Sequence record: PP400777
DNA: 64,000 nt
Direction: 5' to 3' (one strand)
From: Escherichia phage JM10
Position numbers and translations under genes: made by a program
The notes under the pieces: generated by a model
Databases searched by the model: none
What the model saw: the letters and a program-made list of their open reading frames with translations, nothing else
What the model was told of the DNA's origin: nothing
Part shown: positions 2,047-18,805 of the stretch, one piece after another
How the letters are laid out: the number at the start of each line of letters is the position of its first letter
How positions within the stretch are numbered: position 1 is the first letter of the stretch

Positions 2047-3322
2047 TGGTGTTTAACCCTATGCATGATTTCTTTATTTTTACCAAGATTAAATCCGCGT
2101 TCGTTCGGATTTCCCAAATAACCGCATGTTCTTCTTATGGTGTTCATCTTTTTAGGATCACTTTCTCCACAAACTGAACAAACAAATCCGTTTTCAGTAG
2201 GAGTCATTTCATGGGTACTTCCACATGTAAAACATTTATCTACTGGCATATTAACACCAAAATAATCTAAATGTTGTGCAGCATAATCCCAGACAGCCTC
2301 AAGTCCCTTTAAATTGTTTTTCATATCTGGAAGTTCAACATAAGAAATGTGACCACCTGTCGCAATGAAATGATATGGCGCTTCACGAGAAATCTTTTCA
2401 AACGGAGTAATATTTTCTTCTACTGAAACATGGAAACTGTTAGTGTACCAGCCTTTATCGGTGACATCCTTTACACTTCCATATTTTTCTGTATCAAGTT
2501 TACAGAAGCGATAACAAAGGTTTTCAGCAGGAGTAGAATATAAACTAAAAGCAAATCCAGTTCTTTCAGACCACTGTTTAAGATGAGCATTCATTTTAGT
2601 TAAAATTTCTTGTCCAATATCACGACCGACAAGAATATTCAATTCGTGAATACCGATGTATCCCAAAGACACTGAACTTCTACCGTTTTTAAATAACTCA
2701 ATTATGTCGTCATCAGGTTTAAGACGAACCCCGAATGCACCTTCTTGGTAAAGAATAGGAGCTACAGTTGCTTTAACACCCTTTAAAGAACTAATTCTAC
2801 ACATCAAGGCTTCAAAACACAGATCCATTCGTTCATTAAATAGCTCAACAAATTTCTGTTCATTGAACTGTGTTCCAATATAAGAATCTAACGCAATACG
2901 AGGAAGATTCAATGTTACAACACCAAGATTATTACGTCCGTCAAGAATTTCATTTCCAGTTGAATCTTTCCATACACTCAAGAAACTACGACAGCCCATT
3001 GGAGAAACTGGAACTGAAGAACCAGTAATAGCTTTATTATTCTTAGCTGAAATAATATCAGGATACATCCTTTTGCTTGCGCACTCTAAAGCAAGTTGCT
3101 TAATGTCGTAATTCGGATCGTCTTTATAAAGATTAACGCCTTCTTCAACGAACATAACAAGCTTAGGGAAAATAGGAGTTATCCCATCACGTCCAAGACC
3201 TTTAATACGATTTTTCAGAATTGCTTTCTGAATCATTCGTTCGGTCCAGTCAGTTCCCGTACCAAATGTAATTGTTACAAAAGGAGTCTGTCCGTTTGAA
3301 CTGAAAAGTGTATTTACTTCAT
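2043..3322 (-). CDS. nrdD: anaerobic ribonucleoside-triphosphate reductase, exon 2
   Basis: C-terminal glycyl-radical region; joined to exon 1 gives a 605-aa product; 3' splice site inferred after an intron-terminal G. Confidence 0.8.
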
Positions 3323-14550: not shown

Positions 14551-14853
14551 TTAGATAGATGTAGGCTCTAATTTTATTTTCATGAACTCAGCAAATTGTC
14601 TGGCAGTTTTTATGCCTTGTTCATGACATTCAAATGCATCATCACAGGGGCTATTTTTGTAATGCTTTGCCATATACTTATAGAATTTTTCAGAATTCTC
14701 GACATTTTGAATTTCAAACAAAGTATATACGTTTTTAATCCCTGATTCCATAAAGTTATCAAAATATGGGTCGATATATGCAGTACCAACGATAGGAGTT
14801 GTTGCTGCAAAAAACCACAGCATCGCCATGACAGCTATCGCTCTTAAGGCCAT
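14551..14853 (-). CDS. rI: lysis inhibition regulator RI (antiholin)
   Basis: signal-anchor N-terminus; FMESGI..PC..FEC motifs match my recall of T4 RI. Confidence 0.75.
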   Translation of the reverse strand: MALRAIAVMAMLWFFAATTPIVGTAYIDPYFDNFMESGIKNVYTLFEIQNVENSEKFYKYMAKHYKNSPCDDAFECHEQGIKTARQFAEFMKIKLEPTSI

Positions 14854-15696: not shown

Positions 15697-15879
15697 TTAT
15701 AGTGAATTCACGTAGTCAATGAGTTCTTGTTCTTTCCTGTCAAATGATTCCATCAATGCGTGATATTCTTCGTCCGTCAAAGGAGCATATTCATCGTACG
15801 CATTGGTGGCTGCTTGTTCATCCAATAGGTCATGGATAAGTTCGAACAGTTTAGCTTTCTCTTCTTTAGTTAATTTCAT
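15697..15879 (-). CDS. hypothetical small acidic protein
   Basis: 60-aa ORF. Confidence 0.35.
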   Translation of the reverse strand: MKLTKEEKAKLFELIHDLLDEQAATNAYDEYAPLTDEEYHALMESFDRKEQELIDYVNSL

Positions 15880-16370
15880 TTAGGTTCCAAATCAACAATC
15901 ACAATTTCTAGTTTAGTGGAATACGTATCTAAAATCTCTTCGATGACATCCCAGTTTCCACCACCAATACCTGCACCAATTCTTGGCATATAAATTACAG
16001 GCTTTGTTATCTTATTCTTTCCGAATTCATTTAATTCTATTATACAATTCATTAAAGCAGAGTACTCAAAATTAGGTCCCGGCTCAAACTGTGTATAAAG
16101 ATTAAAGCAATAAGCTTTATGGGTCTTAAAATATTTTTCATAAACCGAATAAGACCCGAGTTTAGACTCATCTCCGAATTCGGTTTGAAGTTTATCGGCT
16201 TCCAGAATTTTTGGATAAGCCTTTGCTAATTGTCCTGCTACACCAGCGCCCATTGTATGAAAACAATTACACCCATGCGCAATATTATTACCTTTAGAAA
16301 ACAGGGCGACAATATCGCCCTTGATATAGTTTTTAATCACTTGCTGCAAGTCCTCTAGTATAAGAGTCAA
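15876..16370 (-). CDS. macro-domain-like protein (possible ADP-ribose binding/hydrolase)
   Basis: GCNCFHTMGAGVAGQL and IGAGIGGG glycine-rich motifs resemble macro-domain loops. Confidence 0.4.
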   Translation of the reverse strand: MTLILEDLQQVIKNYIKGDIVALFSKGNNIAHGCNCFHTMGAGVAGQLAKAYPKILEADKLQTEFGDESKLGSYSVYEKYFKTHKAYCFNLYTQFEPGPNFEYSALMNCIIELNEFGKNKITKPVIYMPRIGAGIGGGNWDVIEEILDTYSTKLEIVIVDLEPK

Positions 16371-16680
16371 CTAGGCGGTCCACCATAGAATTGCATGCTG
16401 CCTTATCTTTAGGTTCCGCCACCGAGCATTCTAATATTTGCCATTTTTTATAGTATCTTTTAATTAAGGTAGACGCCTTGAACCTACTAGACGCCCCATC
16501 TTTTTCTCCGTCTTTATACGCATATAACAATTTTTGTGAAAAATCTACTTTACACTCTTGACTTTTACCACAATAATCAGACGCCGTTCTGTTTGTATAC
16601 TCCGTTACATCAGTATATGTAGTATTAGCAAGAGCGTTAAATGAAACCAAGCCAACTATTAAAGCCAACATTTTGGTCAT
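16333..16680 (-). CDS. secreted protein
   Basis: N-terminal signal-peptide-like MTKMLALIVGLVSFNALA. Confidence 0.4.
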   Translation of the reverse strand: MTKMLALIVGLVSFNALANTTYTDVTEYTNRTASDYCGKSQECKVDFSQKLLYAYKDGEKDGASSRFKASTLIKRYYKKWQILECSVAEPKDKAACNSMVDRLVDSYTRGLAASD

Positions 16681-17219
16681 TCTTTTATTTCCAGTAGTTT
16701 ATTTGATTTAAGGTAATTAGCCTTTTCTAGGACTTCAGAAGCATATTTACTTCCAGCACTTGTCTTCCATCCTGCATTATATGAGGATATAGCTTTTCTT
16801 ATATCCCCGTTATGTATATTTAACCAATAAGAAAATTCGATATAAGCCCATCTGGCTGAATTAGACCGCTTAGATAGCATTTTCTTAATTTGGGCATCAG
16901 TCATATTATAACCAAGCTGGTTAATTCTTGCCCTCATTGTCGGTAGATAATTTTGGAACATTCCATACGCATGGTGACCTTTCTTATCTTTAAGATTAAT
17001 ACCGGCAGATGATTCCTGCCATAGTATTGCGGCCATTATGTATCCAAGTCCTTTCTTATGCATATTTTCATGCGTTTTAAATTTTCCGTCCTTAGAAAAC
17101 TGTTCCCCAAACTGATAAGCATAATTCAAGTTATCGAGTTGGACATTACTAAAAGTATGCTCGGAGCTATGTGCTGATAATGAAAGAGCAAATAGACCAG
17201 CGAGTAGTGCTTTTCTCAT
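16677..17219 (-). CDS. secreted lytic transglycosylase-like protein
   Basis: signal peptide; WQESS and SYNAGW motifs typical of SLT domains. Confidence 0.5.
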   Translation of the reverse strand: MRKALLAGLFALSLSAHSSEHTFSNVQLDNLNYAYQFGEQFSKDGKFKTHENMHKKGLGYIMAAILWQESSAGINLKDKKGHHAYGMFQNYLPTMRARINQLGYNMTDAQIKKMLSKRSNSARWAYIEFSYWLNIHNGDIRKAISSYNAGWKTSAGSKYASEVLEKANYLKSNKLLEIKE

Positions 17220-17227
17220 GTTTACCT

Positions 17228-17686
17228 CTAGATTTTAATCACTGCTTTAGAAGCTTTTCCTGGTAGTCGTTTATTGTTAATAATAGCCATTCTGCATTGA
17301 AGAGACTTCATTTTGAATGCTGGATTTTCGCGACAAACTGTAAGTCCTAACCAAAGATTTCCATCAGTTATTTCTAAACGGCCTGGGCGATATTCGACAC
17401 CTTCGACAAAATCTTCATCAACATCTGGACGTGCCGGCATTGATAAAAATTCTGCAACTTCTTTAACATGATTTTTTACTTTATGAAATAATTCAAAAAC
17501 GTAATTCTCATCTATTTCTCTCTGGATGGCACGATCTAAGAGATGTTGAGAATACTTGATATGAAAGCCTGGTAGTCCAAGAGACTTTGCAGCATCTTTT
17601 ATACTGGCATTTATTTTGCGGAACTCCGTTTCAAAGATTCGACGGAGTTTATTACGGCGGATAAAAACGTCTGAATTGATAGTCAT
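17228..17686 (-). CDS. regB: RegB site-specific endoribonuclease
   Basis: 152 aa; close match to my recall of T4 RegB. Confidence 0.85.
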   Translation of the reverse strand: MTINSDVFIRRNKLRRIFETEFRKINASIKDAAKSLGLPGFHIKYSQHLLDRAIQREIDENYVFELFHKVKNHVKEVAEFLSMPARPDVDEDFVEGVEYRPGRLEITDGNLWLGLTVCRENPAFKMKSLQCRMAIINNKRLPGKASKAVIKI

Positions 17687-17714
17687 TTTGATTTCTCCTC
17701 TAGTTGACAGGTCT

Positions 17715-17743
17715 ATAGTAACACAACTAGAGGAGAAGTAAAC
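17715..17743 (-). promoter_or_regulatory. T4-type early promoter upstream of regB
   Basis: GTTTACttctcctctagttgtgtTACTAT. Confidence 0.45.
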
Positions 17744-18239: not shown

Positions 18240-18443
18240 CTCATCAGTGGCAAGGTCATATTCGACCAATTGGATAGGCTCATTAATACCATATCCACGT
18301 ACAGTGATATCAGTTGACGGATATTTTCCAGTAATATCACCCGTTCTAAATGCTTCAATGAATGATTGCTCGCCTGAGCAACTAAACCAGGCGGCAAAAC
18401 ATTTTAAAACATCTTCAGACCCTTCTATAATCAATTTAGCCAT
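18219..18443 (-). CDS. hypothetical small protein
   Basis: 74-aa ORF. Confidence 0.4.
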   Translation of the reverse strand: MAKLIIEGSEDVLKCFAAWFSCSGEQSFIEAFRTGDITGKYPSTDITVRGYGINEPIQLVEYDLATDEEIPYVD

Positions 18444-18805
18444 TATAGACTCTCAGTAAAGGTACGAGCGATAACGTCGCGCTGCTGTTCCGGAGTCAGA
18501 GAGTTAAAGCGAACTGCATAACCGGATACACGGATGGTCAGCTGCGGATATTTTTCCGGATGCTTAACTGCATCTTCCAGAGTTTCACGACGCAGAACGT
18601 TAACGTTCAGATGTTGACCACCTTCAATTTTAACTTTAGGTTGATGTTCAATTTCAATTTCACGGGCATGCAAACCGTAGAAAATTTCCGGGTCTACAAT
18701 AGCGTCTTCTTTAAAAGTCTTAGAGACAATAATCCGGGCTTGAGTACCGTCTTCAAAATAAATAGTGCCTTTATGCGCACCTTCAAGAATTTGATATGCT
18801 TTCAT
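18443..18805 (-). CDS. autonomous glycyl-radical cofactor (GrcA/YfiD-like)
   Basis: C-terminal [25 protein letters not shown] is the pyruvate formate-lyase glycyl-radical signature. Confidence 0.75.

Follow-up and report, generated by a model that had tools for sequence, protein, structure and literature searches.

Does gene vs of the T4-like phages, known as the gene for a modifier of the host valyl-tRNA synthetase (ValRS), encode a cytoplasmic protein, or is its product exported to act beside that of its neighbour, vs.1? The question is raised by two adjacent open reading frames (ORFs) of Escherichia phage JM10 (sequence record PP400777), of which a stretch of 64,000 nucleotides (nt), hereafter called the window, was analysed. 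An earlier note on this DNA, made from its letters alone, had described two secreted early proteins at positions 16333-17219, one of them with lytic transglycosylase motifs, and both ORFs are indeed found there on the minus strand. What the note overlooked is that the ORF of 115 amino acids (aa) is vs, the long-established "valyl-tRNA synthetase modifier", which is supposed to act on a cytoplasmic target. The explanation slightly favoured here, taken as a whole, is that an exported enzyme of SLT type (Vs.1) and an exported partner or regulator (Vs) are made from one early unit, regB-vs.1-vs. The Vs family proves to be wider than sequence searches suggest and is, by prediction, a near-constant exported neighbour of Vs.1, which is at odds with its textbook function. 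If this conflict were resolved, either a gene assignment forty years old would be set right or the role of an early, non-lysis murein enzyme in a lytic phage would come to light.

These ORFs correspond to T4 vs.1 and vs, of which they are orthologues of RB69 type. The DNA of the window is 98.8% identical to that of RB69 (genus Mosigvirus) over the surrounding 3.5 kb, from tk to regB; vs.1 and vs lie between regB and tk.4 in RB69, and the gene order in T4 is identical. Vs.1 of the window has 83% identity to T4 Vs.1 (UniProt P13311) and ~99% to the RB69-type protein (RB69 Vs.1, AAP76017), and the 115-aa ORF has 67% identity to T4 Vs (UniProt P13310). Vs also matches phrog_1256 (E=5e-35), and its close homologues carry a precomputed PF26829 assignment. 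In the RB69 record vs.1 is a "conserved hypothetical protein" and vs a "valyl-tRNA synthetase modifier"; identical or near-identical proteins in public and cluster records are named "lytic transglycosylase domain-containing protein" (Vs.1) and "valyl-tRNA synthetase modifier" (Vs). The SLT likeness of vs.1 and both gene annotations are thus already known: a marginal but conserved SLT match of vs.1 was reported for six T4-like genomes by Nolan et al. 2006 (PMC1524935), who cited earlier PSI-BLAST results for T4 vs.1. Annotations in GenBank and UniRef have drifted, vs being often named "valyl-tRNA synthetase", the enzyme instead of its modifier, and vs.1 being sometimes named "endoribonuclease", "RegB" or "site-specific RNA endonuclease", names that seem to have been carried over from the gene next to it.

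Both N-termini were examined for export signals, and both families were screened with one crude rule that demands a net positive n-region, a core of at least 8 uncharged residues with a mean Kyte-Doolittle hydropathy of at least 1.6, and either a -3/-1 cleavage site or a lipobox. In the window, the signal-peptide-like starts that had been suspected for both proteins are present as an n-region with K/R, 11-13 uncharged residues forming a hydrophobic core, and a small-x-small site (Table 1). The rule was applied to 79 IMG/VR loci that hold Vs.1 relatives. It is passed by 61 of 66 distinct sequences of the Vs.1 family, FelixO1-like ones included (wrong start calls or truncations explain the five that fail), and by 46 of 47 distinct Vs sequences, against a background of 71 of the 626 other ORFs of at least 80 aa at these loci (11%). 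In one Vs clade of five homologues, a lipobox, LSGC (...ALSGC/K), replaces the signal peptide. In the AlphaFold2 models, residues 1-17 of Vs are disordered and outside the helix bundle, with a predicted local distance difference test score (pLDDT) below 50, and residues 1-20 of Vs.1 (pLDDT ~53) are outside the fold. These N-terminal features suggest that Vs is probably an exported protein.

The extent of the Vs family was easily underestimated. Searches with a single Vs sequence returned only four relatives from a word index and seven from a library of 1.8 billion representatives, and the family seemed tiny; no model for Vs is present in the copies of Pfam and NCBIfam searched. Synteny combined with a custom hidden Markov model (HMM) showed the family to be wider. 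In Klebsiella phage KpnM6E1 and Acinetobacter phage Mokit, vs.1 is present and vs is undetectable by BLAST; the ORF directly 3' of vs.1 in each has the size of Vs, a signal peptide, the four-cysteine layout and a similar C-terminus, and hhalign confirms that these ORFs are homologous to Vs, with a probability of 97% (E=7e-11) for KpnM6E1 and 71% (3.7e-5) for Mokit.

Among 17 representatives of the Vs family (at most 60% identity), the four cysteines are conserved, and the N-terminus retains its n-h-c character (n-region, hydrophobic core, cleavage site) rather than its sequence. The first cysteine pair is spaced x5-6 and the second 8-10 residues family-wide. The invariant C-terminal motif of the closer homologues is retained by distant members in a degenerate form, L..Y..G[LI]. 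AlphaFold2 models Vs (pLDDT 84) as a bundle of four helices (H16-37, H41-63, H69-85 and H90-114) in which each cysteine pair flanks a hairpin turn. A natural 85-aa variant in Dhakavirus vB_EcoM_005 (L005:1893-2150), found also at L028:3541-3798, lacks residues ~36-68 and retains the signal peptide, the second cysteine pair and the invariant C-terminus; the first pair has thus been lost as a unit.

A tblastn search found relatives of Vs.1 in 2060 phage records, with T4-like, Ackermannviridae and FelixO1-like phages among them. In 52 of the 79 loci the ORF immediately 3' of vs.1 belongs to the Vs family; these are T4-like loci of several genera, Acinetobacter phages included, and make up the whole T4-like part of the set but for four loci, with the vs start between -8 and +7 nt from the vs.1 stop (wider-family HMM, E 1e-55 to 1e-14). 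By the same HMM, no Vs-family ORF was found in those four (L061-L063 and L078), which look like Aeromonas phages, in two further loci, or in FelixO1-like phages, and Vs is also absent from the Ackermannviridae phage Ag3. A functional coupling of Vs to Vs.1 is proposed with reserve, its chances being a little short of even.

In T4, disruption of vs or vs.1 carries a measurable, condition-dependent fitness cost. Both genes are non-essential in the HIDEN-SEQ transposon data, in which vs is the gene most depleted in M9-glucose compared with LB, a defect confirmed by a knockout (10.1101/2025.11.20.689424). In LB the insertion counts average 26.6 for vs and 22.6 for vs.1, as against 178.6 for regB, 289.6 for tk.4 and 652.1 for vs.3 nearby (10.1101/2025.11.20.689424, supplementary tables). 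From LB to M9 the log2 fold change is -2.19 for vs (adjusted p shown as 0) and -0.87 for vs.1 (p=0.0055, adjusted 0.155); on isolate CFE299 the depletion is significant for vs.1 (-1.20, adjusted p 0.015) and a non-significant trend for vs (-1.04) (10.1101/2025.11.20.689424). The two genes thus share a fitness profile absent from their neighbours, which fits either a common function or a polar effect of vs.1 insertions on vs.

The assignment of Vs.1 to the SLT family rests on motifs, alignments and a predicted fold. The motifs E-S, G-L-M-Q and A-Y-N-x-G, the last followed by a conserved Tyr, are those of the family-1 lytic transglycosylases in the classification of Blackburn and Clarke. The sequences WQESS and SYNAGW, which the earlier note had pointed out in the 180-aa protein, were read back from the DNA at residues 67-71 and 146-151, and GMFQN supplies a counterpart of the second motif. 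In an alignment of 40 homologues with identities down to 41%, the invariant residues include W67, E69, G86, Q89, N90, Y147, G150 and Y159, the pair E69-S70 being invariant or nearly so, and Y-N-x-G is seen in every listed Vs.1 lineage but one (L064, unmatched). Structure prediction yields a confident model with a goose-lysozyme-like, all-helical GH23 fold. Several homologues carry a precomputed PF01464 assignment, and 37 of the 40 match the Pfam SLT model at E<0.01 (best 1.3e-7). Thus the SLT likeness claimed for the protein is more than chance; in the domain search that had been proposed as a check most homologues match, as does the protein of the window itself, at a score that stays below the gathering cut-off (see below). 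Vs.1 is very probably an exported protein with an SLT fold, and it is rather likely to be active as a lytic transglycosylase.

Table 1. Features of the vs.1-vs region in the window
Feature	Positions	Strand	Basis or remark
vs.1 coding sequence, 180 aa	16677-17219	minus	ORF list; predicted exported SLT/GH23-fold protein
vs coding sequence, 115 aa	16333-16680	minus	RB69 vs annotation, phrog_1256, homology to T4 Vs; predicted exported four-helix protein
ATGA overlap of vs.1 stop and vs start, 4 nt	16677-16680	minus	possible translational coupling
Predicted Sec signal peptide of Vs.1, residues 1-16, MRKALLAGLFALSLSA	17172-17219	minus	heuristic; cleavage before H17 (HSSEH)
Predicted Sec signal peptide of Vs, residues 1-18, MTKMLALIVGLVSFNALA	16627-16680	minus	heuristic; cleavage before N19 (NTTY)
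Vs.1 WQESS, residues 67-71, SLT motif I (E-S); E69 predicted catalytic acid	17007-17021	minus	read from DNA
Vs.1 GMFQN, residues 86-90, counterpart of SLT motif II (G-L-M-Q)	16950-16964	minus	alignments
Vs.1 SYNAGW, residues 146-151, counterpart of SLT motif III (A-Y-N-x-G)	16767-16784	minus	read from DNA; Y159 follows
Vs first cysteine pair, C37...C43, at helix 1-helix 2 turn	16552-16572	minus	conserved in 17 representatives
Vs second cysteine pair, C85...C96, at helix 3-helix 4 turn	16393-16428	minus	invariant among close homologues; conserved family-wide
Vs invariant C-terminal motif SMVDRLVDSYxRGL, residues 98-111	16348-16389	minus	invariant alignment columns
T4-early-type promoter-like site, GTTTAC-17 nt-TACTAT	17715-17743	minus	upstream of regB; sequence read

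The early expression that had been proposed for both proteins is supported by their T4 orthologues, which are classed as early at the RNA level and middle at the protein level (supplement of PMC9697503). Upstream of regB is a site resembling a T4 early promoter, the T4 counterpart of which reads TTTACT-17-TATAAT with a TG upstream, and a scan found no MotA-box middle promoter between regB and vs. Because of these two observations an early regB-vs.1-vs transcript starting at the early-type site is likely; a dedicated middle promoter for vs.1 and vs was considered and rejected, since no MotA-box was found in this interval. The T4-type endolysin gene e lies at ~21330 on the minus strand and is separate from vs.1, as the earlier note had held.

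From these elements the following course of events may be pictured. Both genes would be expressed from the early unit regB-vs.1-vs. Vs.1 would be made as a 20.6-kDa precursor, exported by the Sec pathway and probably cut after Ala16, and the mature protein would fold as a single GH23/SLT domain, with E69 as the single catalytic acid and GMFQN and SYNAGW lining the glycan groove. It would then be a small periplasmic enzyme cleaving murein glycan from early or middle infection onward, most likely in the manner of the family-1 lytic transglycosylases and apart from the late endolysin e. Vs would likewise be exported, its mature form of ~11 kDa being a four-helix bundle stabilised by disulfides, with each hairpin turn closed by a cysteine pair, and would act in the periplasm with Vs.1 as partner or regulator rather than only as a cytoplasmic ValRS modifier. 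The purpose, which is a guess, may be local loosening or remodelling of the sacculus in the infected cell, mattering most in slow-growing or wild hosts.

Several points weigh against this account. The signal-peptide calls rest on a crude heuristic rule and not on SignalP. Vs.1 of the window matches Pfam SLT (PF01464) at E=0.0013 with 18.8 bits, below the gathering cut-off of 21.3. Comparison of the Vs.1 profile by hhalign with the single sequence of the E. coli Slt70 C-domain, used solely for residue correspondence, gives a weak match (E=0.08), in which E69 falls on the Glu of QES (E505 of the precursor, the catalytic E478 in mature numbering) and GMFQ on GLMQ. Neither the Vs.1 nor the Vs sequence has a significant match in the PDB, where the Vs.1 profile reaches a g-type lysozyme below threshold (E ~0.3), with the E69 motif aligned with RES; the copy of NCBIfam searched has no model for Vs.1. 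Aeromonas T4-like, FelixO1-like and Ackermannviridae phages have homologues of Vs.1 but no Vs, so that Vs is not obligatory for Vs.1. The adjacency and overlap of the two genes are weak evidence of coupling, since T4 genes are tightly packed in general, and the transposon phenotype of vs.1 could be polarity on vs.

The largest difficulty is the classical role of vs. During T4 infection the host ValRS is altered in vivo by a peptide of ~10 kDa, tau, and vs mutants lack this change. Work of Neidhardt, Marchin and colleagues (1966-1980) reportedly credited gene vs with the change, and tau is said to have been put at ~10 kDa by Mueller and Marchin in 1977. Accordingly, Vs could be cytoplasmic tau, binding ValRS as annotated, with an N-terminus that is not a working export signal or that leaves part of the pool inside, a synteny without functional meaning, and Vs.1 as an independent exported murein enzyme. 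This is what the name used in all databases and the identity to T4 Vs imply, and the gene packing noted above allows it. The predicted mature Vs of ~11.0 kDa is compatible with tau, the match being no worse than that of the 13-kDa precursor. That vs is needed in minimal medium also fits a ValRS role, to which the authors of the T4 knockout linked the defect (10.1101/2025.11.20.689424).

Set against a cytoplasmic Vs are the features of its family. A signal peptide or lipobox is predicted in 46 of 47 members despite little sequence conservation at the N-terminus, a lipobox standing in for the signal peptide in one clade, and a Vs cut by signal peptidase would be separated from cytoplasmic ValRS by the membrane. 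The four conserved cysteines sit at helix-hairpin turns and one pair has been lost as a unit in the deletion variant, the gene lies directly 3' of that for an exported enzyme in 52 loci, and vs.1 alone has the same fitness profile in the transposon data. When produced in the cytoplasm with a His-tag at its N-terminus, T4 Vs is insoluble and forms inclusion bodies (PMC8076793), which agrees, as weak evidence, with a periplasmic site of folding. A Cys4 zinc site, with which Vs could be cytoplasmic, was considered and seems less likely, given the varying cysteine spacing and the loss of one pair as a unit. The cytoplasmic location is thus not borne out by prediction, and Vs as cytoplasmic tau alone appears rather unlikely. 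The more specific proposal is that Vs is an exported, disulfide-stapled periplasmic protein forming, with SLT-type Vs.1, a conserved two-gene module across many T4-like phages that aids fitness in slow-growing or wild hosts, and that either the classical function was assigned to the wrong ORF or Vs additionally serves in the periplasm as partner or regulator of Vs.1; this combination is offered tentatively, as less likely than not.

A periplasmic Vs might instead be an inhibitor or immunity protein that restrains Vs.1 until lysis, in the manner of Spackle and gp5, PliG and the g-type lysozymes, or Tsi3 and Tse3. Unless they are polar on vs, insertions in vs.1 should then not be costly in themselves, yet they have low counts in LB and are depleted in M9 and on CFE299; many phages, moreover, hold Vs.1 without any Vs to restrain it. 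The fold search with Vs gave generic helical matches only, with no likeness to a known murein hydrolase inhibitor, and both mature proteins are basic (pI 8.3 and 9.6). Charge complementarity between mature Vs and Vs.1, tried as a sign of interaction, fails for this reason and is uninformative. A restraining role is accordingly considered improbable.

Vs.1 might also be something other than a lytic transglycosylase: a muramidase resembling the g-type lysozymes, a chitinase-like enzyme, or a non-catalytic binder of murein. Against these readings, the three SLT motifs and the catalytic Glu do not vary among the 40 diverse homologues, and the host contains no chitin. The g-type lysozymes (GEWL) have Asp residues in the segment after the catalytic Glu, whereas the 40-sequence alignment has no second acidic residue conserved just after E69, on which account a lytic transglycosylase is favoured over a hydrolase. 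These alternatives together seem to have little probability. A service of the early murein enzyme in superinfection exclusion, one of the roles suggested in the earlier note, is very improbable: Vs.1 would be early and periplasmic like Imm and Sp of T4, but these two already account for T4 exclusion, and the medium- and host-dependent transposon phenotypes are not predicted by it.

The surroundings of the two genes have features of their own. Downstream of vs in KpnM6E1 (L006:2309-2707) and Mokit (L007:2282-2707) is a family of ~135 aa with a signal-peptide-like N-terminus, the sequence starting ...A/WE, followed in Mokit (L007:2707-3006 and 3003-3305) by an ORF with a hydrophobic N-terminus and then by the rI antiholin gene; the region 3' of vs in these phages looks like a cluster of exported proteins. 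In the window, rI, a lysis-inhibition regulator by the RB69 annotation (14551-14853, minus strand), has a long hydrophobic N-terminus, MALRAIAVMAMLWFFAATTPIVG..., and so, only a few genes further downstream than vs, there is one more gene with an envelope-directed product. Immediately beyond vs, tk.4 (15876-16370, minus strand) encodes a macro-domain protein (Pfam Macro, E=3.5e-6); its start annotated in RB69 is, by reading of the DNA, a GTG at 16340, and it overlaps the end of vs by 8 nt. The T4 counterpart has been named AdfM, an anti-DarTG2 factor (10.1101/2025.11.20.689424). Inside the 5' end of tk.4, 12 nt past the vs stop, is a GC-rich palindrome with an 8-bp stem and a T-run (16303-16321, minus strand), conserved in T4 (L002:4852-4872); it could be a leaky terminator of the regB-vs.1-vs transcript, or could just encode the conserved IKGDIVALF of Tk.4.

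At the other end of the unit, a hairpin formed by a 14-bp inverted repeat (17693-17737, minus strand; dG -21.6 kcal/mol, z = -3.6 against shuffled sequences) lies upstream of regB (17228-17686), where it spans the -10 element of the promoter-like site and pairs with the regB Shine-Dalgarno sequence, GAGGAG. It is possibly a translational or RegB-autoregulatory element; stem-loops before regB and vs have reportedly been noted already for T4. Further away, vs.6 (18443-18805, minus strand) is an ORF of 120 aa ending ...RVSGYAVRF... that resembles GrcA, the autonomous glycyl-radical cofactor, a likeness already noted by Nolan et al. 2006 (PMC1524935).

Compared with known systems, Vs.1 of the window does not differ in substance from that of T4 and RB69, being the same gene in the same place between regB and vs. 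With the family-1 lytic transglycosylases (Slt70, MltC, MltD, MltE and MltF; PF01464, GH23) its sequence likeness is marginal, at the 18.8 bits given above. Unlike Slt70 and the Mlt enzymes, Vs.1 is a bare catalytic domain of ~164 residues that lacks superhelical, LysM and lipid-anchor modules; it is phage-encoded and made early, and an additional helix at its N-terminus (25-38) carries the invariant Q27, A34 and G38. A possible analogue is EtgA, a small lytic transglycosylase of type III secretion that is stimulated by EscI; the partner proteins of EtgA and Vs.1 are unrelated, and we know of no envelope-spanning machine that is built early in T4 infection. For Vs the comparison with T4 Vs, or tau, is one of conflict: the 115-aa ORF is its orthologue, yet the features of the family predict the periplasm while the classical target lies in the cytoplasm. 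A conceptual model for Vs acting with Vs.1 may be found in T4 itself, in Spackle (gp61.3) and the gp5 tail lysozyme: Spackle is a small helical early protein with a signal peptide, and acts on a murein hydrolase in the periplasm.

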